Positions 1,679 to 64,000 of a DNA stretch of 64,000 nucleotides are shown here, one piece after another. The DNA comes from Escherichia coli (GTDB lineage Bacteria > Pseudomonadota > Gammaproteobacteria > Enterobacterales > Enterobacteriaceae), in assembly GCF_024502345.1 (NCBI RefSeq), contig NZ_JALDNN010000001.1. The stretch is one strand, 5' to 3'. A program made the position numbers and the translations under genes. Within the stretch, counting starts at the first letter, position 1; every line of letters starts with the position of its first letter. The notes below the pieces were generated by a model. The model did no database searches. It was not told the origin of the DNA and saw only the letters and a list, made by a program, of their open reading frames with translations.

Positions 1679-3829
1679 ATGGATACGAAAAAACTATTCA
1701 AGCACATACCCTGGGTGATTCTCGGAATCATCGGTGCATTCTGCCTCGCGGTAGTTGCATTACGTCGGGGGGAGCACGTCAGCGCCCTGTGGATCGTGGT
1801 CGCCTCTGTGTCGGTGTATCTGGTGGCGTATCGCTACTACAGTCTGTACATCGCCCAGAAGGTGATGAAACTCGACCCCACGCGCGCGACGCCTGCGGTT
1901 ATTAACAACGACGGTCTGAACTACGTTCCGACCAACCGTTACGTGTTGTTTGGTCACCACTTCGCCGCTATCGCCGGTGCTGGTCCGCTGGTTGGTCCGG
2001 TTCTCGCCGCGCAGATGGGCTACCTGCCTGGCACGCTGTGGCTGCTGGCGGGGGTAGTGCTGGCCGGTGCGGTACAGGACTTTATGGTGCTGTTTATCTC
2101 CTCTCGCCGTAACGGCGCATCTCTCGGTGAGATGATCAAAGAAGAGATGGGACCAGTACCGGGGACTATCGCGCTGTTTGGCTGTTTCTTAATCATGATC
2201 ATCATCCTCGCCGTTCTGGCGCTGATTGTGGTTAAAGCCCTGGCCGAAAGTCCGTGGGGTGTCTTCACCGTTTGCTCAACCGTACCAATTGCGCTGTTTA
2301 TGGGTATCTATATGCGCTTTATTCGTCCGGGGCGTGTAGGTGAAGTCTCTGTCATTGGTATCGTGCTGCTGGTTGCCTCTATCTACTTCGGTGGCGTGAT
2401 TGCTCACGATCCGTACTGGGGTCCGGCACTGACCTTTAAAGACACCACCATTACCTTCGCGCTGATTGGCTATGCGTTTGTTTCCGCGCTGCTGCCGGTG
2501 TGGCTGATCCTCGCACCACGCGACTATCTGGCAACCTTCCTGAAAATCGGCGTTATCGTCGGCCTGGCGCTGGGTATCGTGGTGCTGAACCCGGAACTGA
2601 AAATGCCTGCGATGACCCAGTACATTGACGGTACTGGCCCGCTGTGGAAAGGCGCTCTGTTCCCGTTCCTGTTCATCACCATCGCCTGTGGTGCGGTATC
2701 TGGCTTCCACGCACTGATCTCTTCCGGTACGACGCCGAAACTGCTGGCTAATGAAACCGACGCGCGTTTCATCGGTTATGGCGCAATGCTGATGGAGTCC
2801 TTCGTGGCGATTATGGCGCTGGTTGCTGCGTCCATCATCGAACCAGGTCTTTACTTCGCGATGAACACCCCGCCTGCTGGCCTTGGCATCACCATGCCTA
2901 ACCTGCATGAAATGGGTGGCGAGAACGCGCCGATCATCATGGCGCAGCTGAAAGACGTTACCGCACACGCGGCAGCGACCGTCAGCTCCTGGGGCTTCGT
3001 GATTTCGCCAGAACAGATCCTGCAAACCGCGAAAGACATTGGTGAGCCTTCTGTCCTGAACCGTGCAGGTGGTGCGCCGACGCTGGCGGTAGGTATCGCT
3101 CACGTGTTCCACAAAGTGCTGCCGATGGCTGACATGGGCTTCTGGTATCACTTCGGTATTCTGTTCGAAGCACTGTTCATCCTGACCGCGCTGGATGCGG
3201 GTACCCGTTCTGGCCGCTTTATGTTGCAAGACCTGCTGGGTAACTTCATCCCGTTCCTGAAAAAAACCGACTCTCTGGTTGCCGGTATCATCGGTACTGC
3301 GGGCTGTGTGGGTCTGTGGGGCTACCTGCTGTATCAGGGCGTGGTCGATCCGCTGGGCGGCGTTAAGAGCCTGTGGCCGCTGTTCGGTATCTCCAACCAG
3401 ATGCTGGCAGCCGTGGCGCTGGTACTGGGCACCGTTGTGCTGATTAAGATGAAGCGCACCCAATACATCTGGGTTACTGTTGTTCCGGCTGTATGGCTGC
3501 TTATCTGCACCACCTGGGCGCTGGGCCTGAAACTATTCAGCACCAACCCGCAGATGGAAGGCTTCTTCTACATGGCAAGCCAGTACAAAGAGAAGATTGC
3601 TAACGGTACTGACCTGACGGCGCAGCAGATTGCCAACATGAACCACATCGTTGTGAACAACTACACCAACGCAGGCCTGAGTATTCTGTTCCTGATTGTG
3701 GTGTACAGCATCATCTTCTACGGTTTCAAAACCTGGCTTGCGGTGCGTAACAGCGACAAACGTACTGACAAAGAAACTCCGTACGTTCCAATCCCGGAAG
3801 GCGGCGTGAAGATCTCTTCGCACCACTAA
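1679..3829 (+). CDS. btsT: CstA-family pyruvate/H+ symporter (BtsT/YjiY)
   Basis: Track ORF 1664..3829; likely start at MDTKKLFKHIPWV (716 aa). Large polytopic membrane protein of the carbon-starvation CstA family; synteny with yjiX-yjiA. Confidence 0.9.
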   Translation: MDTKKLFKHIPWVILGIIGAFCLAVVALRRGEHVSALWIVVASVSVYLVAYRYYSLYIAQKVMKLDPTRATPAVINNDGLNYVPTNRYVLFGHHFAAIAGAGPLVGPVLAAQMGYLPGTLWLLAGVVLAGAVQDFMVLFISSRRNGASLGEMIKEEMGPVPGTIALFGCFLIMIIILAVLALIVVKALAESPWGVFTVCSTVPIALFMGIYMRFIRPGRVGEVSVIGIVLLVASIYFGGVIAHDPYWGPALTFKDTTITFALIGYAFVSALLPVWLILAPRDYLATFLKIGVIVGLALGIVVLNPELKMPAMTQYIDGTGPLWKGALFPFLFITIACGAVSGFHALISSGTTPKLLANETDARFIGYGAMLMESFVAIMALVAASIIEPGLYFAMNTPPAGLGITMPNLHEMGGENAPIIMAQLKDVTAHAAATVSSWGFVISPEQILQTAKDIGEPSVLNRAGGAPTLAVGIAHVFHKVLPMADMGFWYHFGILFEALFILTALDAGTRSGRFMLQDLLGNFIPFLKKTDSLVAGIIGTAGCVGLWGYLLYQGVVDPLGGVKSLWPLFGISNQMLAAVALVLGTVVLIKMKRTQYIWVTVVPAVWLLICTTWALGLKLFSTNPQMEGFFYMASQYKEKIANGTDLTAQQIANMNHIVVNNYTNAGLSILFLIVVYSIIFYGFKTWLAVRNSDKRTDKETPYVPIPEGGVKISSHH

Positions 3830-31445: not shown

Positions 31446-32117
31446 TTTGCGCACTCCTGACGTTTAGCAACATATGCGGCTTGCCCTGAACACCGGGCAC
31501 CACAGTATTGATGCTCATTTTCCATAGCCATTCCCTTTTGTTCATTACATCCATGTCAGTCTGAGACAGGCCTGAATCCTGTCAGCAAAGTATAAAACCT
31601 TACTTGCCTATGAATATCTACTGACTTTTCAGGAAAAAAGTCATGATTTGATAAAAATCATCAAACTCAAAAAAAAACCGCTAGTATATTCTGAATATTC
31701 CGAATAGTTACGTAGATGAAAATACTTGTCACCGCCGCTACTTAATTCCGGTGGAAAATTATTTATTTCCGCATAATCAGCCATGTATTATTTGAAACAA
31801 TTAGTTTGTAAATAATATAAATTGATAACATATCAAATACATCAAAAATACCATTCACAGGCATTATTAACATAGACCTCAATATAGCAACATCAAATTC
31901 CAATTAGTAATAAGATATGCTTTTTAATTGCATGCAAATAATTTTAAATGAGCGTTTTTTGATACTTTAGAGTGTTTCCCACCCTTTAATATCACCATGT
32001 AGAGTTGATATCACTACAACAGAAACATGCATGTCATTTGTTTACTTCTCTTTTTACTACAGAAAAATTTATCTATTTTTCTAAACATCAGTGAAATACT
32101 CATAAAAGGTAACTATT

Positions 32118-32291
32118 ATGTCTATGCCATTAAGCAATGCCCTTCAGAGTCAAATTATTACAGATGATCACTTCCTTCATCACCCAATAGTCGACAGTGA
32201 GTTAATACGTAAATATGAACGTACACGCCTGGATACGGAAAATATCTATCTTCTGCCTCTTGTTCGTGGCAATAACGGCTTTGTTGAATAA
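32118..32291 (+). pseudogene. Short ORF abutting the IS903-like element; possible 5' fragment of yjiC
   Basis: 57-codon ORF (MSMPLSNALQSQIITDDHFLHHPIV...) running into the IS inverted repeat; identity as yjiC inferred from position only. Confidence 0.3.
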
Positions 32292-33333
32292 ATCAGATTT
32301 CGGGTAAGTCTCCCCCGTAGCGGGTTGTGTTTTCAGGCAATACGCACGCTTTCAGGCATACCTGCTTTCGTCATTTTGTTCAGCGCTCGTACCAGGGCCA
32401 TAGCCTCTGCAACCTGACCATCGTAGTCACGCAGTGTCAGTGAACCCCCGAACAGCTGTTTTACCCGGTACATCGCCGTTTCCGCTATCGAGCGACGGTT
32501 GTAATCTGTTGTCCATTTCCACCGCGCATTACTCCCGGTCATTCGCTGATTAGCCACTGCACGGTTACGGTCTGCATATTCACCGGGCCAGTAACCCGCA
32601 CCTTTTCGGGGAGGGATAAGCGCGCTGATTTTCTTACGCCGCAGTTCATCGTGACATAGCCGGGTATCGTAAGCGCCATCGGCGGCGGCTGACCTGATTT
32701 TCCGGTGGGTTTGCCGGATTAACCCGGGGAAGGCCTCTGAGTCCGTAACGTTGTTCAGCGACAGGTCAGCGCAGATGATTTCATGTGTTTTACTGTCAAC
32801 GGCGAGATGCAGCTTACGCCAGATACGGCGGCGTTCCTGGCCATGCTTTTTGACTTTCCACTCGCCTTCACCGAAGACCTTCAGCCCGGTGGAATCAATT
32901 ACCAGGTGTGCGATTTCACCCCGGGTGGGCGTTTTGAAACTGACATTAACCGACTTTGCCCGCCTGCTGACACAGCTGTAATCCGGGCAGCGTAGCGGAA
33001 CGTTCATCAGAGAAAAAATGGAATCAATAAAGCCCTGCGCAGCGCGCAGGGTCAGCCTGAATACGCGTTTAATGACCAGCACAGTCGTGATGGCAAGGTC
33101 AGAATAGCGCTGAGGTCTGCCTCGTGAAGAAGGTGTTGCTGACTCATACCAGGCCTGAATAGCTTCATCATCCAGCCAGAAAGTTATGGAGCCACGGTTG
33201 ATGAGGGCTTTATTGTAGGTGGGCCAGTTGGTGATTTTGAACTTTTGCTTTGCCACGGAACGGTCTGCGTTGTCGGGAAGATACGTGATCTGATCCTTCA
33301 ACTCAGCAAAAGTTCGATTTATTCAACAAAGCC
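32277..33333 (-). mobile_element. IS903-like insertion sequence (IS5 family), copy A, 1057 bp
   Basis: Terminal inverted repeats GGCTTTGTTGAATAAATC at both ends enclosing a 322-aa DDE transposase; no flanking 9-bp target duplication seen. Confidence 0.85.
32333..33301 (-). CDS. IS903-like (IS5-family) transposase
   Basis: 322-aa ORF identical to the one at 48576..49544; TTG start. Confidence 0.9.
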   Translation of the reverse strand: MKDQITYLPDNADRSVAKQKFKITNWPTYNKALINRGSITFWLDDEAIQAWYESATPSSRGRPQRYSDLAITTVLVIKRVFRLTLRAAQGFIDSIFSLMNVPLRCPDYSCVSRRAKSVNVSFKTPTRGEIAHLVIDSTGLKVFGEGEWKVKKHGQERRRIWRKLHLAVDSKTHEIICADLSLNNVTDSEAFPGLIRQTHRKIRSAAADGAYDTRLCHDELRRKKISALIPPRKGAGYWPGEYADRNRAVANQRMTGSNARWKWTTDYNRRSIAETAMYRVKQLFGGSLTLRDYDGQVAEAMALVRALNKMTKAGMPESVRIA

Positions 33334-33550
33334 CCTTGCCGCATTACTTAATGCTAATATTGAGTTGGGTAATGACCCAATAATTGGTATAGAAGCCTAT
33401 CCCGGTACCGCGGAGATCCATGCAAAAATGGGATATAAAGTTATCCCGGGTGATGAAAATGCACCACTCAAACGTATGACTCTGCAACCGTCATCTCTTC
33501 CAGAACTGTTTGAATTAAAAAATGGTGAATGGAATTATATTGGTAAATAA
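33334..33550 (+). pseudogene. 3' fragment of a gene disrupted by IS903-like copy A (possibly yjiC)
   Basis: Open frame continuing out of the IS right end (...PLAALLNANIELGNDPIIGIEAYPG...NGEWNYIGK*); position between iraD and uxuR. Confidence 0.3.
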
Positions 33551-33690
33551 CTACCAGGAACAATGAGTACTAATATTCAGGTTATACAGATATTTAAACA
33601 ATACCCTGCAATTTACAAAGTAATACTCATTGCGACTTCTTAATTTAAGAAAGCGCAAGGAACGTTTACCCTTGCGCTTATTATAATAAG

Positions 33691-53710: not shown

Positions 53711-55213
53711 ATGAGCGAACCCCTGTTAATTGCCCGCACGCCGGACACAGAACTGTTTTTAATGCCGGGAATGGCTAACCGTCACGGGCTGATTACTGGC
53801 GCAACGGGGACGGGTAAAACCGTTACGCTGCAAAAACTGGCAGAGTCATTGTCGGAAATCGGCGTGCCGGTGTTTATGGCTGATGTGAAAGGCGATCTGA
53901 CCGGCATCGCGCAGGCAGGAACGGCATCGGAAAAACTGCTCGCAAGGCTTAAAAATATCGGCGTAAATGACTGGCAACCGCATGCCAATCCGGTGGTGAT
54001 GTGGGATATCTTTGGCGAGAAAGGCCATCCGGTGCGGGCGACGGTTTCAGACCTGGGGCCGCTGTTGCTGGCGCGTTTGTTGAATCTCAACGATGTGCAA
54101 TCTGGCGTCCTGAATATCATCTTCCGCATTGCTGACGATCAGGGGCTGTTACTGCTCGACTTTAAAGATTTGCGGGCGATTACCCAGTACATCGGCGATA
54201 ACGCCAAATCTTTCCAGAATCAGTACGGTAATATCAGTAGCGCATCGGTTGGTGCCATCCAGCGCGGATTACTGTCGCTGGAGCAACAAGGTGCGGCGCA
54301 TTTCTTTGGCGAGCCGATGCTGGATATCAAAGACTGGATGCGCACCGATGCCAACGGTAAAGGCGTTATCAATATCCTCAGCGCCGAGAAACTTTATCAG
54401 ATGCCGAAACTGTACGCCGCCAGCCTGCTGTGGATGCTTTCAGAGTTGTATGAACAATTGCCGGAAGCGGGCGATCTGGAGAAACCAAAACTGGTGTTTT
54501 TCTTCGACGAGGCACATCTGCTGTTTAACGATGCCCCGCAGGTACTGCTGGATAAGATTGAGCAGGTGATAAGGCTTATTCGCTCAAAAGGCGTGGGCGT
54601 CTGGTTCGTTTCGCAAAACCCGTCTGATATTCCAGATAATGTGCTCGGCCAGCTCGGTAATCGCGTTCAACACGCTTTGCGGGCTTTTACGCCAAAAGAT
54701 CAGAAAGCAGTGAAGGCAGCGGCGCAAACCATGCGGGCCAATCCGGCATTTGATACGGAAAAGGCAATCCAGGAACTGGGGACCGGCGAGGCGTTAATCT
54801 CGTTTCTCGATGCAAAAGGAAGTCCTTCTGTGGTGGAACGGGCGATGGTGATTGCGCCTTGTTCGCGGATGGGGCCGGTGACGGAAGATGAGCGTAATGG
54901 CTTGATTAATCACTCTCCGGTGTATGGCAAGTACGAGGATGACGTGGACCGGGAATCCGCCTATGAGATGTTGCAAAAAGGCGTACAGGCAAGCACCGAG
55001 CAGCAAAATAATCCTGCCGTGAAAAGGAAAGAGGTAGCGGTAGATGACGGCATTCTTGGTGGATTGAAGGATATTTTGTTTGGCACTACCGGACCACGCG
55101 GCGGGAAGAAAGATGGTGTTGTGCAAACAATGGCGAAAAGCGCCGCCCGCCAGGTGACGAATCAGATTGTGCGTGGAATGTTGGGGAGTTTGCTGGGGGG
55201 GAGAAAAAGGTAA
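53711..55213 (+). CDS. yjgR: DUF853-family P-loop NTPase YjgR
   Basis: Track ORF 53663..55213; likely start at [11 protein letters not shown]; Walker A ([10 protein letters not shown]). Confidence 0.85.
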
Positions 55214-55373
55214 GCCAGGTGCGATTTGTCTTTGCCTGATGCGACGCTGGCGCGTCTTATCATGCCTACACCACTGCAATACATTGGATTTTCATGATTT
55301 TTCAGGCATGAATGAAGCACACTTTGCTAATAATAATAAAGGGAGCTTTCGCTCCCTTTATTCGTTCATTCGG

Positions 55374-56459
55374 TTACGATTTTCTCATTAACAGCCACAG
55401 GCTGATTAAGAAGAAGCTGGCGCTTGGCAACAGTGCGCCAATGATCGGCGGGATGCCGTAAACCAACGTCAGCGGACCGAAGATCTGGTCCAGTACGTAG
55501 AAGACAAAACCGAAGCTGATACCGGTGACCACACGCACGCCCATCGGTACGCTACGCAGTGGGCCAAAGATGAACGACAGCGCCATCAGCATCATCACCG
55601 CCACGGATAGCGGCTGGAAGATTTTGCTCCACATGTTGAGCTGATAACGTCCGGCATCCTGACCGCTCGACTTCAGATACTTCACGTAGTTGTGCAAACC
55701 GCTGATTGAGAGTGCATCCGGGTCCAGCGCCACCACGCCCAGTTTGTCTGGCGTGAGGTTGGTTTTCCAGGTGCCGCTCACCGTCTGCGAACCGGTAATC
55801 TGTTTCGGATTGGTCAGATCAGATTCATCAACCTGCGACAGACGCCAGACTTTATGTTCCGGGTCAAACTTCGCAGTAGCGGCATAGCGTACGGATTGCA
55901 GACGACGATTTTCGTTAAAGGCATAAATGCTGATGCCACCTAACTCTTCGTCACCTTTAACCCGCTCAATGTAAACGAAGTTGTTGCCATCTTTCGCCCA
56001 TAAGCCTTGCTGGGTAGAGAGCAACGAGCCGCCGTACATCGCCTGCGCACGGTAGTTACGCGCCATCTGCTCGCCCTGCGGCGCGACCCATTCACCAATC
56101 GCCATCGTCAGCAAGACCAGCGGAATGGCGGTTTTCATCACCGACAGCGCAACCTGCATACGGGTGAAACCAGAAGCCTGCATCACCACCAGTTCGCTGC
56201 GCTGCGCCAGCATCCCAAGACCAAGCAACGCCCCAAGCAGAGCCGCCATCGGGAAGAATATTTGCACATCTTTCGGCACGCTCAGCAAGGTATACATTCC
56301 TGCGCCTAACGCGTCGTAACTCCCCTGCCCGGCTTTTTTCAGCTGATCGACAAATTTGATAATGCCCGACAGCGACACCAGCATGAACAGCGTCATCATG
56401 ATGGTGGTGAAAATAGTTTTACCGATATAGCGGTCAAGTACGCCAAAAGGTTGCATCAC
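55374..56459 (-). CDS. lptG: LPS export ABC transporter permease LptG
   Basis: 361-aa membrane protein directly downstream of lptF with 4-nt overlap. Confidence 0.9.
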   Translation of the reverse strand: MMQPFGVLDRYIGKTIFTTIMMTLFMLVSLSGIIKFVDQLKKAGQGSYDALGAGMYTLLSVPKDVQIFFPMAALLGALLGLGMLAQRSELVVMQASGFTRMQVALSVMKTAIPLVLLTMAIGEWVAPQGEQMARNYRAQAMYGGSLLSTQQGLWAKDGNNFVYIERVKGDEELGGISIYAFNENRRLQSVRYAATAKFDPEHKVWRLSQVDESDLTNPKQITGSQTVSGTWKTNLTPDKLGVVALDPDALSISGLHNYVKYLKSSGQDAGRYQLNMWSKIFQPLSVAVMMLMALSFIFGPLRSVPMGVRVVTGISFGFVFYVLDQIFGPLTLVYGIPPIIGALLPSASFFLISLWLLMRKS

Positions 56460-57556
56460 ACCGCTCCTTTACGCGAAAAACTGGCGCGCAGGCGGCGGAC
56501 CGGCACGGTGTCCCAAAGGTTGAGAACAATCGCCAAAGCCAGATAAATCAGGTTAACGGTCCACATCCACAGCGTCGGGTCCAGCTTACCTTTACCGCCG
56601 TTCGATTTCAGGGAGGTCTGGATCAGGAAGAACAACAGATACAGCAGCATGGCTGGCAGCATCGATAGTACGCGCCCCTGACGCGGGTTAACCACGCTCA
56701 GCGGTACGACCATAAGTGCCATCATAAACACGGTGAACACCAACGTGATACGCCAGTTCAGTTCTGCGCGAGCACGATCGGTGTCAGTGTTCCACAATGT
56801 GCGCATGTCCATCTGGTCGGTATCGTTCGGGTCGAGCGCCACCGCCTGGTGACCAATGATCGCCTGATAATCCTGGAAATCCGTAATGCGGAAATCACGT
56901 AACAGTGCAGTGCCTTCGAAGCGCGTTCCCTGGTTGAGAGTGACGACCTGGGAGCCGTCGCGCAGCTGGGTTAAATGTCCGGAATCGGCCACCACCACAG
57001 AAGGAAGTGCATTACCTTTTGGTCGAATTTGCGCGAGGAACACATCTTTGAAATCGCTGCCGTCAACGCTTTCGATGAACAGCACCGAACTGCCATTAGT
57101 CGCTTGCTGGAATTGCCCTTGCGCCAGCGCCGCCATGCCAGGGTTCGCTTTCGCTTCTGCTAACACTTCATCCTGATGACGCGATGACCACGGTCCCGCC
57201 CACATCACGTTAACCGCCGCGACGATTGCCGTGAATACCGCAAGGATCATTGCCGCTTTCACCAGAACCGCTTTGCTCAGGCCGCAGGCATGCATTACCG
57301 TAATTTCACTTTCGGTATACAGTTTGCCCAGCGTCATCAGCAGCCCGAGGAACAGGCTTAATGGCAGGATAAGCTGCGCCATTTCCGGCACGCCCAACCC
57401 GAGAAGGGAGAGCACCAGATTCGCCGGAATATCGCCGTCAACCGCTGCGCCGAGGATCCTCACTAACTTTTGACAGAAGAAGATCAAAAGCAAGATGAAG
57501 AGTATCGCCAGCTGGCTTTTGAGCGTCTCCCGCACCAGATATCTTATGATTATCAC
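56456..57556 (-). CDS. lptF: LPS export ABC transporter permease LptF
   Basis: 366-aa membrane protein divergent from pepA. Confidence 0.9.
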   Translation of the reverse strand: MIIIRYLVRETLKSQLAILFILLLIFFCQKLVRILGAAVDGDIPANLVLSLLGLGVPEMAQLILPLSLFLGLLMTLGKLYTESEITVMHACGLSKAVLVKAAMILAVFTAIVAAVNVMWAGPWSSRHQDEVLAEAKANPGMAALAQGQFQQATNGSSVLFIESVDGSDFKDVFLAQIRPKGNALPSVVVADSGHLTQLRDGSQVVTLNQGTRFEGTALLRDFRITDFQDYQAIIGHQAVALDPNDTDQMDMRTLWNTDTDRARAELNWRITLVFTVFMMALMVVPLSVVNPRQGRVLSMLPAMLLYLLFFLIQTSLKSNGGKGKLDPTLWMWTVNLIYLALAIVLNLWDTVPVRRLRASFSRKGAV

Positions 57557-57819
57557 TTTAAATACGCCCGTAAAAACTCGTCTTTTGCAGGATTTTAGCT
57601 TGTTTCATGGCTTAAACGTCATTTATTCTCTTGAGTCGTCGAAATCGTCGCTAAGATAATTATACTCAACGGATTCACCTCTCAGATTTTGTTCTGACGT
57701 GCCAATGCCGTAATAACGTTAAGATTAACACGAAGTCATCGCAACAGCGGACATGAGTTACGAAAGCTTGCAATTCTATCTGTAGCCACCGCCGTTGTCT
57801 TTAAGATTCAGGAGCGTAG

Positions 57820-59334
<1,515 letters not shown>

Positions 59335-59337
59335 TTG

Positions 59338-59650
<313 letters not shown>

Positions 59651-59687
59651 TGATGCGTATTTAAATCCACCACAAGAAGCCCCATAT

Positions 59688-60131
59688 ATGAAAAACGCAA
59701 CGTTCTACCTTCTGGACAATGACACCACCGTCGATGGCTTAAGCGCCGTTGAGCAGCTGGTGTGTGAAATTGCCGCAGAACGTTGGCGCAGCGGTAAGCG
59801 CGTGCTCATCGCCTGTGAAGATGAAAAGCAGGCTTACCGGCTGGATGAAGCCCTGTGGGCGCGTCCGGCAGAAAGCTTTGTTCCGCATAATTTAGCGGGA
59901 GAAGGACCGCGCGGCGGTGCGCCGGTGGAGATCGCCTGGCCGCAAAAACGCAGCAGCAGCCCGCGCGATATATTGATTAGTCTGCGAACAAGCTTTGCAG
60001 ATTTTGCCACCGCTTTCACAGAAGTGGTAGACTTCGTTCCTTATGAAGATTCTCTGAAACAACTGGCGCGCGAACGCTATAAAGCCTACCGCGTGGCTGG
60101 TTTCAACCTGAATACGGCAACCTGGAAATAA
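59688..60131 (+). CDS. holC: DNA polymerase III chi subunit
   Basis: 147 aa; start of valS overlaps its stop; conserved pepA-holC-valS synteny. Confidence 0.9.
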
Positions 60132-62986
60132 TGGAAAAGACATATAACCCACAAGATATCGAACAGCCGCTTTACGAGCACTGGGAAAAGCAGGGCTACT
60201 TTAAGCCTAATGGCGATGAAAGCCAGGAGAGTTTCTGCATCATGATCCCGCCGCCGAACGTCACCGGCAGTTTGCATATGGGTCACGCCTTCCAGCAAAC
60301 CATCATGGATACCATGATCCGCTATCAGCGCATGCAGGGCAAAAACACCCTGTGGCAGGTCGGTACTGACCACGCCGGGATCGCTACCCAGATGGTCGTT
60401 GAGCGCAAGATTGCTGCAGAAGAAGGTAAAACCCGTCACGACTACGGCCGCGAAGCTTTCATCGACAAAATTTGGGAATGGAAAGCGGAATCCGGCGGCA
60501 CGATTACCCGTCAGATGCGCCGTCTCGGCAACTCCGTCGACTGGGAGCGTGAACGCTTCACCATGGACGAAGGCCTGTCCAATGCGGTGAAAGAAGTTTT
60601 CGTTCGTCTGTATAAAGAAGACCTGATTTACCGTGGCAAACGCCTGGTAAACTGGGATCCGAAACTGCGCACCGCTATCTCTGACCTGGAAGTCGAAAAC
60701 CGCGAATCGAAAGGTTCGATGTGGCACATCCGCTATCCGCTGGCTGACGGTGCGAAAACCGCAGACGGTAAAGATTATCTGGTGGTCGCGACTACCCGTC
60801 CGGAAACCCTGCTGGGCGATACTGGCGTAGCCGTTAACCCGGAAGATCCGCGTTACAAAGATCTGATTGGCAAATATGTCATTCTGCCGCTGGTTAACCG
60901 TCGTATTCCGATCGTTGGCGACGAACACGCCGACATGGAAAAAGGCACCGGCTGCGTGAAAATCACTCCGGCGCACGACTTTAACGACTATGAAGTGGGT
61001 AAACGTCACGCGCTGCCGATGATCAACATCCTGACCTTTGACGGCGATATCCGTGAAAGTGCCCAGGTGTTCGATACCAAAGGTAACGAATCTGACGTTT
61101 ATTCCAGCGAGATCCCCGCAGAATTCCAGAAACTGGAGCGTTTTGCTGCACGTAAAGCGGTCGTTGCTGCGGTTGACGCACTCGGCCTGCTGGAAGAAAT
61201 TAAACCACATGACCTGACCGTTCCTTATGGCGACCGTGGTGGCGTGGTCATCGAACCGATGCTGACCGACCAGTGGTACGTGCGTGCCGATGTCCTGGCG
61301 AAACCGGCAGTTGAAGCGGTTGAGAACGGCGACATTCAGTTCGTACCGAAGCAGTACGAAAACATGTACTTCTCCTGGATGCGCGATATTCAGGACTGGT
61401 GTATCTCTCGTCAGTTGTGGTGGGGTCACCGTATCCCGGCATGGTATGACGAAGCGGGTAACGTTTATGTTGGCCGCAACGAAGACGAAGTGCGTAAAGA
61501 AAATAACCTCGGTGCTGATGTTGTCCTGCGTCAGGACGAAGACGTTCTCGACACCTGGTTCTCTTCTGCGCTGTGGACCTTCTCTACCCTTGGCTGGCCG
61601 GAAAATACCGACGCCCTGCGTCAGTTCCACCCAACCAGCGTGATGGTATCTGGTTTCGACATCATCTTCTTCTGGATTGCCCGCATGATCATGATGACCA
61701 TGCACTTCATCAAAGATGAAAATGGCAAACCGCAGGTGCCGTTCCACACTGTTTACATGACCGGCCTGATTCGTGACGACGAAGGCCAGAAGATGTCCAA
61801 ATCCAAGGGTAACGTTATTGACCCACTGGATATGGTTGACGGTATTTCGCTGCCAGAACTGCTGGAAAAACGCACCGGCAATATGATGCAGCCACAGCTG
61901 GCGGACAAAATCCGTAAGCGCACCGAGAAGCAGTTCCCGAACGGTATTGAACCGCACGGTACTGACGCGCTGCGCTTCACCCTGGCGGCGCTGGCTTCTA
62001 CCGGTCGCGATATCAACTGGGATATGAAACGCCTGGAAGGTTACCGTAACTTCTGTAACAAGCTGTGGAACGCCAGCCGCTTTGTGCTGATGAACACGGA
62101 AGGTCAGGATTGCGGCTTCAACGGCGGCGAGATGACGCTGTCGCTGGCGGATCGCTGGATTCTGGCGGAGTTCAACCAGACCATCAAAGCGTACCGCGAA
62201 GCGCTGGACAGCTTCCGCTTCGATATCGCCGCAGGCATTCTGTATGAGTTCACCTGGAACCAGTTCTGTGACTGGTATCTGGAGCTGACTAAGCCGGTAA
62301 TGAACGGTGGCACCGAAGCCGAACTGCGCGGTACTCGCCATACGCTGGTGACCGTGCTGGAAGGTCTGCTGCGCCTCGCGCATCCGATCATTCCGTTCAT
62401 CACCGAAACCATCTGGCAGCGTGTGAAAGTACTTTGCGGTATCACTGCCGACACCATCATGCTGCAGCCGTTCCCGCAGTACGATGCATCTCAGGTTGAT
62501 GAAGCCGCACTGGCCGACACAGAGTGGTTGAAGCAGGCGATCGTTGCGGTACGTAACATCCGTGCAGAAATGAACATCGCGCCGGGCAAACCGCTGGAGC
62601 TGCTGCTGCGTGGTTGCAGCGCGGATGCAGAACGTCGCGTAAATGAAAACCGTGGCTTCCTGCAAACCCTGGCGCGTCTGGAAAGCATCACCGTGCTGCC
62701 TGCCGATGACAAAGGTCCGGTTTCCGTTACGAAGATCATCGACGGTGCAGAGCTGCTGATCCCGATGGCTGGCCTCATCAACAAAGAAGATGAGCTGGCG
62801 CGTCTGGCGAAAGAAGTGGCGAAGATTGAAGGTGAAATCAGCCGTATCGAGAACAAGCTGGCGAATGAAGGCTTTGTCGCCCGCGCACCGGAAGCGGTCA
62901 TCGCGAAAGAGCGTGAGAAGCTGGAAGGCTATGCAGAAGCGAAAGCGAAGCTGATTGAACAGCAGGCTGTTATCGCCGCGCTGTAA
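60131..62986 (+). CDS. valS: Valine--tRNA ligase
   Basis: 951 aa; class I aaRS HIGH ([12 protein letters not shown]) and KMSKS (QKMSKSKGN) motifs. Confidence 0.95.
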
Positions 62987-63010
62987 TCAAAACACAGTGA
63001 TGAAAACGAA

Positions 63011-63037
63011 GGCCGGAGCATGCTCCGGCCTTTTTTA
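63011..63037. terminator. Rho-independent terminator after valS (between convergent valS and yjgN)
   Basis: ggccggagcatgctccggcc perfect hairpin followed by TTTTTTAT. Confidence 0.7.
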
Positions 63038-63041
63038 TCTC

Positions 63042-64000
63042 TTACAGAAATGGTAAAGAAGGCATAATTCCCCGTGAAATACTGGCTAAGAAGCCTTTAT
63101 CTGGTTGTTCTTCTTTATTGATTAAAGGAAGGTCATCCAAATCGCCCAGCAAATATGTATTTTTTGCCTGCCAGTCAATCATCCATATTTTCAGCAGTGG
63201 ATAAGCCAGACCGCCCGTAATCCCGGATATCACCACCAACGCACACATGCGATAAAGCATACCGTGGTATGTTAAAGTTGAGCGAAAACGAATACGCCCA
63301 TCATTCAGTGACAGGTTGCTCATAAAATGATTTCGCAACGACACCGTTAAATAACTGGTGCTAACAGCAATCCCAAAATAATAGATTAACTGCGCGATTA
63401 TCATTTTACGTTGCATTTCCATAAATTGCTGTAAATTCTCAATATCATCATTTGCATACACAGAACTATCATACGCATTTAATATTTGATCGAAGATAAT
63501 ATAACCAGCAACAGCGAGAAAAGGTAATAAAGCTAAAAATGCGAGAATGGCATATTTTATACAATACGTAGTATCTAATTTCACCTTGAAACGATGTATA
63601 CCGAAACTGGTATTGCTCCAGAGAAAACTCATTACCAGACTATATAAAGTACCATTAAAAATACCAATGGAAACAATACCAACTATTGCCATCAGAACCA
63701 CAGATATAATAACACTACTTGAACTATTGGCATGTAGCATCTTTGTCGAGATAAAGAAAACAGCCCCCATCCCAATGGCCATTAAAATCGGCAAGAAAAA
63801 GGTTACCCACCAGAACCCTTTCAAAGAGCAATTAAAACTAAATCTTACGCCGTTGAGACTGGTCATCAAGGCCTGATAACGCAGTCCTTTTGCTGCCATA
63901 AATATAAGCAAAACCAACAGTGACAAAGTCAAAACACAGCCAACAAGCGGCATATCTGCTGACACTGTCATTAAGATTGCGAAATAGAAAAAAACAAAAA
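63042..64000 (-). CDS. yjgN: DUF898-family inner membrane protein YjgN (5' end beyond the window)
   Basis: Open frame to the window edge; hydrophobic multi-TM sequence; convergent with valS as I recall for K-12. Confidence 0.65.
   Translation of the reverse strand, partial: FVFFYFAILMTVSADMPLVGCVLTLSLLVLLIFMAAKGLRYQALMTSLNGVRFSFNCSLKGFWWVTFFLPILMAIGMGAVFFISTKMLHANSSSSVIISVVLMAIVGIVSIGIFNGTLYSLVMSFLWSNTSFGIHRFKVKLDTTYCIKYAILAFLALLPFLAVAGYIIFDQILNAYDSSVYANDDIENLQQFMEMQRKMIIAQLIYYFGIAVSTSYLTVSLRNHFMSNLSLNDGRIRFRSTLTYHGMLYRMCALVVISGITGGLAYPLLKIWMIDWQAKNTYLLGDLDDLPLINKEEQPDKGFLASISRGIMPSLPFL

Follow-up and report, generated by a model that had tools for sequence, protein, structure and literature searches.

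A single IS903B copy at a 455-bp internal loss in the yjiC gene of an Escherichia coli chromosome

How does a complete insertion sequence come to lie within a gene without a target duplication, and between two gene fragments whose reading frames do not fit a simple insertion? This question is raised by a locus in the 64,000-nucleotide stretch of Escherichia coli DNA analysed here (assembly GCF_024502345.1, contig NZ_JALDNN010000001.1; hereafter the window). An earlier note, made from the letters alone, had described an IS903-like copy inside a disrupted gene, presumptively yjiC, which seemed to have lost internal sequence next to the element. Our analysis agrees with this description and assigns the element to IS903B itself. 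The features of relevance for this locus are:

32118-32276, plus strand: yjiC 5' fragment, codons 1-53, nt 1-159 (assigned by identity to E. coli strain 81 and by Pfam)
32277-33333, minus strand: IS903B copy A, complete, 1,057 bp, IS5 family, IS903 group
32277-32294, no strand: 18-bp terminal inverted repeat GGCTTTGTTGAATAAATC, at the end distal to the transposase start
32333-33256, minus strand: IS903B transposase gene, 307 aa, GTG start, intact (ORF list and Pfam)
33316-33333, no strand: 18-bp terminal inverted repeat, at the end proximal to the transposase start
33334-33550, plus strand: yjiC 3' fragment, nt 615-831 (third base of codon 205, codons 206-276 and stop)
48544-49600, plus strand: IS903B copy B, identical to copy A and inverted relative to it (self-BLAST)

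The interrupted open reading frame was identified by its position, its domain content and its alignment to intact copies of the gene. The gene order in the window is hypT (+), iraD (-), the interrupted frame (+), uxuR (-) and uxuB (-), with the interrupted frame holding the position that yjiC, annotated as "DUF2686 family protein", usually occupies between iraD and uxuR. Both fragments match the Pfam family DUF2686, the 5' fragment over profile positions 1-61 (E=6e-15) and the 3' fragment over profile positions 215-285 (E=4e-36), and they are 99.4% and 100% identical to nt 1-159 and nt 614/615-830, respectively, of yjiC of E. coli strain 81. The earlier note had proposed an alignment to an intact yjiC as a check of its reading, which would fail if the fragments turned out not to be parts of the same gene. 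In this alignment, both fragments are colinear, and on the same strand, with the yjiC annotated between iraD and uxuR in strain 81 and in thousands of other genomes. Compared to intact E. coli yjiC, which is found in the same place between iraD/idlP/ytiD and uxuR, the retained parts show 99-100% nucleotide identity, whereas codons 54-205 are missing from the interrupted gene in the window. The 57-codon open frame seen by the earlier note at the left IS end (32118-32291) reads through 53 codons of yjiC and a further four contributed by the IS (GFVE) before it stops, and the 3' fragment of roughly 70 codons on the right comprises 71 full codons plus the stop. Thus, yjiC in this chromosome is a pseudogene, of which 53 codons are left at the N-terminal end and 71 codons, out of frame, at the C-terminal end. 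We know of no function for yjiC. The gene converges with uxuR, which lies downstream and is therefore not expected to suffer a polar effect. A mechanical ORF of 101 aa (33245-33550) starts from a TTG inside the IS and runs in frame into the yjiC 3' fragment; a promoter scan of the IS end facing this fragment found no outward promoter-like site, leaving expression of the IS-yjiC fusion ORF unsupported.

The element itself was assessed with regard to its ends, its transposase and its overall similarity to annotated elements. The two terminal repeats of copy A are perfectly complementary over all 18 nt, and the transposase matches the Pfam domains DDE_Tnp_1_5 (PF13737; E=3e-40) and DDE_Tnp_1 (PF01609; E=6e-33) well above the cut-offs. 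Over its full 1,057 bp, copy A is 100% identical to many plasmid elements annotated as 'IS5-like element IS903B family transposase', and it shares its length, its perfect 18-bp repeats and its 307-aa DDE transposase with the IS903B elements on Enterobacteriaceae plasmids. Relatives of IS903B are IS903, IS102 and IS602. With the length, the repeats, the single DDE transposase and the near-identity all as in the IS903B/IS903 group, copy A is best classified as IS903B proper and not merely as IS903-like. Its completeness, together with the intact transposase gene and the perfect inverted repeats, indicates that it is competent for transposition. IS903 is 1,057 bp long, and insertions of IS903-group elements create a 9-bp target duplication (PMC12670165). 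Copy A differs from this norm in that, as the earlier note had stated, the duplication is missing: the 9-bp flanks are GGCAATAAC on the left and CCTTGCCGC on the right. Such a duplication marks a recent insertion event rather than the element as such, and copy A lacks it because 455 bp of flanking DNA were lost.

The extent of this loss was derived from the alignment of the flanks to the strain 81 locus (L001). The left flank (822 bp) aligns to positions 1501-2322 of this locus with 99.6% identity and ends at yjiC nt 159, i.e. at the end of codon 53, and the right flank (357 bp) aligns to positions 2778-3134 on the same strand and resumes at yjiC nt 615. Nucleotides 160-614 of yjiC (455 bp) are absent, and the IS begins and ends exactly at the two breakpoints, of which the right one is ambiguous by one base as yjiC nt 614 is a C, like the last base of the IS. 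When the missing 455 bp were sought elsewhere in the 64-kb window, only chance matches of up to 23 nt were found. The reading frame of yjiC is 0 upstream and 2 downstream of the IS. Had the IS simply inserted and duplicated 9 bp, the offset would be (1057+9) mod 3 = 1, while an insertion combined with the loss of 455 bp predicts (1057-455) mod 3 = 2, as observed, which agrees with the frame mismatch noticed in the earlier note. The anatomy of the locus, i.e. the IS identity, the exact breakpoints, the 455-bp loss, the missing duplication and the colinear flanks, is seen directly, and with a breakpoint at an IS terminus, colinear flanks and a lost duplication, it has the traits expected of an adjacent deletion.

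We regard it as rather likely that this locus arose by a simple insertion of IS903B followed by a transposase-mediated adjacent deletion through intramolecular replicative transposition. In a first step, IS903B would have entered yjiC by simple insertion at the site of one of the two junctions, thereby making a 9-bp duplication; the sequence does not say which of the junctions is the original one. The resident IS903B would then have transposed replicatively and intramolecularly into a second yjiC site, about 455 bp away, and the intervening DNA, from one IS end up to the new target, would have left as a non-replicating circle, carrying one IS copy, and been lost. The chromosome would thus end up with one IS, the original flank on one side, the new target on the other and no matching 9-bp repeats.

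This course of events is favoured because IS903 is known for such deletions (PMC11708052, PMC12670165). The passage on IS903 in PMC11708052, which names Weinert, Schaus and Grindley (1983, Science 222:755) as its source, states that adjacent deletions are common for this element, need both IS ends and rely on the cointegrate (replicative) pathway, and IS903 is likewise described to yield both adjacent deletions and cointegrates in PMC12670165. What counts against it is that IS5-family elements also use modes other than the replicative one (PMC11708052), and that no progenitor allele was found among 5,426 complete E. coli genomes. As far as the IS903 adjacent deletions are described in these accounts (Weinert et al. 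1983 via PMC11708052; PMC12670165), they share with the yjiC locus the retention of the IS, the loss of the DNA abutting one end, the breakpoint exactly at the IS terminus and the loss of the duplication. Unlike the IS903 deletions covered there, the yjiC case was met as an end product in a natural chromosome, from which we infer, rather than see, the order of events and the dependence on the transposase. The locus also resembles the IS-Del mutations of the Lenski long-term lines (IS150) and of E. coli C (IS5), in which an IS lies at the deletion without a duplication, but those deletions are large (62 kb in E. coli C), whereas the deletion in yjiC comprises 455 bp within a single gene (PMC11708052). 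Additional support comes from the neighbourhood of yjiC, where other IS-associated losses are found, namely an IS1 fragment, the absence of fim and gntP, and copy B, which also lacks a duplication.

The yjiC sequence alone cannot separate an adjacent deletion from recombination, one-step insertion or assembly collapse. Had IS903B inserted twice and independently, with both copies oriented alike, behind nt 159 and ahead of nt 615, a subsequent RecA-dependent recombination of the two copies would have removed one of them plus the 455 bp in between and left one IS with unmatched 9-bp flanks and colinear yjiC on either side, a product identical to the observed sequence. We consider this possible, if somewhat doubtful: recombination between IS copies is a frequent cause of missing duplications (PMC11708052), and the presence of at least two identical IS903B copies in this genome indicates that the element is active or multicopy, but it would take two equally oriented hits within some 455 bp of one non-essential gene and, in addition, the recombination, i.e. 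three events compared to two for insertion plus adjacent deletion, and no genome with either of the single yjiC insertions is found among 5,426 complete E. coli genomes. The IS could also have inserted in one step and without duplication, directly into a DNA break or a deletion junction. New IS copies at the centres of deletions without duplications have been reported, with insertion into strand breaks as the proposed explanation (PMC11708052). This proposal was made for an IS5 element in E. coli C, which the authors place in the IS903 sub-group (PMC11708052), and the anatomy of yjiC, with the IS at the deletion centre and without duplication, is compatible with it. If true, the yjiC allele would be a natural example of a one-step IS-Del route taken by an IS903-group element. 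We nevertheless judge this route improbable, as the proposal is unproven, its authors concede that insertion plus adjacent deletion remains possible (PMC11708052), and nothing in the yjiC sequence separates the two.

Apart from these biological routes, two IS903B copies around a 455-bp piece could have been collapsed into one during assembly, identical 1-kb repeats being classic collapse points. However, the two identical IS903B copies in the window, the IS3 and the IS1 fragment are all resolved in unique contexts, which suggests a repeat-resolved assembly and makes a collapse very unlikely. We give the least credence to a reading in which the junctions arose when copy A recombined, or underwent duplicative inversion, with copy B or a further distant copy, and regard this as extremely unlikely. 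It would be in line with the two copies being 100% identical, inverted and both devoid of duplications. For A and B, three expectations were examined, i.e. homologous inversion, duplicative inversion and composite A...B transposition, all of which predict matching 9-mers at the flanks. No such match is present among the four flanks, neither directly nor as reverse complement; both flanks of copy A are colinear yjiC in the same orientation, and the missing piece of yjiC is not located next to copy B. Copy B was therefore rejected as a partner in the yjiC deletion, for which insertion followed by adjacent deletion remains our preferred explanation.

Copy B lies 15,210 bp from copy A, 37 bp after the stop codon of an autotransporter gene. 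It is flanked by CATCCACCA and TCTCACTCT, without target duplication, and cuts off an AlpA-like HTH gene, located next to the leuX-island integrase, approximately 53 nt short of its 3' end. A further IS-associated deletion or junction is probably marked by this copy. Together, copies A and B bracket 15.2 kb (32277-49600) containing the yjiC 3' fragment, uxuR, uxuB, uxuA, island remnants and the autotransporter gene. This arrangement of inverted IS903 copies has the architecture of a Tn903-like composite, but the flanking 9-bp duplication of such an element is absent, both for the outer flanks (GGCAATAAC/TCTCACTCT) and for the inner flanks (CCTTGCCGC/CATCCACCA).

The distribution of the yjiC allele was assessed in 5,426 complete E. 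coli genomes. In none of them (0/5,426) does IS903B adjoin these yjiC flanks, neither of the two IS-yjiC junction sequences occurs, and no progenitor is found in which the IS sits at one or the other junction and still has its duplication intact. Nor does the left junction occur among the species representatives of GTDB release 220 (one genome per species). An artificial IS-free junction of 140 bp was used as query for a yjiC carrying the 455-bp deletion without the IS; among the best 6 matches, chosen by coverage x identity with 4,888 further matching records left aside, no such allele is present, and the flanks lie 455 bp apart in all six, giving a span of 595 bp. On these comparisons, the yjiC::IS903B allele appears to be strain-specific and private to the source lineage. 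The IS-yjiC junctions could serve as a lineage marker because they are absent from the 5,426 complete genomes.

Both the phenomenon, i.e. an IS-generated pseudogene, and the element IS903B are already well known. The result therefore matters little beyond annotation, where yjiC would be recorded as one IS-disrupted pseudogene with an internal loss of 455 bp and not as two small genes. In addition, the locus adds to the evidence for IS erosion of the iraD-to-leuX region in this chromosome, where several losses driven by IS elements (IS903B, IS1 and IS3) are seen, the yjiC event among them.

Several further observations were made in the surrounding DNA. The region 37500-42000 lacks gntP and the fim operon, whose normal place is between uxuA and leuX. 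A truncated gene of the sce7725 family, cut into two parts by an IS3 (orfB at 39446-40312), borders on an IS1 transposase fragment (38459-38962) and is followed by a gene of the sce7726 family. The autotransporter gene upstream of copy B (45318-48506) codes for a 1,062-aa protein of the AIDA-I/MisL-like type and is found in only 6 of the 5,426 complete E. coli genomes; it lies in a pheV island in the one genome examined (strain C 236-04A) and in the leuX-side island here. The 14.4 kb to the right of copy B (49601-64000, including ahr, lptFG, pepA and valS) have a best match of only 97-98% identity among the 5,426 E. coli genomes, the left flank of yjiC (31455-32276) shows the 99.6% identity to strain 81 given above, and the 140-bp spacer between yjiC and uxuR contains 9 mismatches. 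These values suggest a mosaic or an under-sampled lineage. Between pepA and holC (59337-59624), there are three tandem units of 96 bp, the second and third of which are 93% and 66% identical to the first, in what looks like a REP/BIME-type intergenic repeat array.
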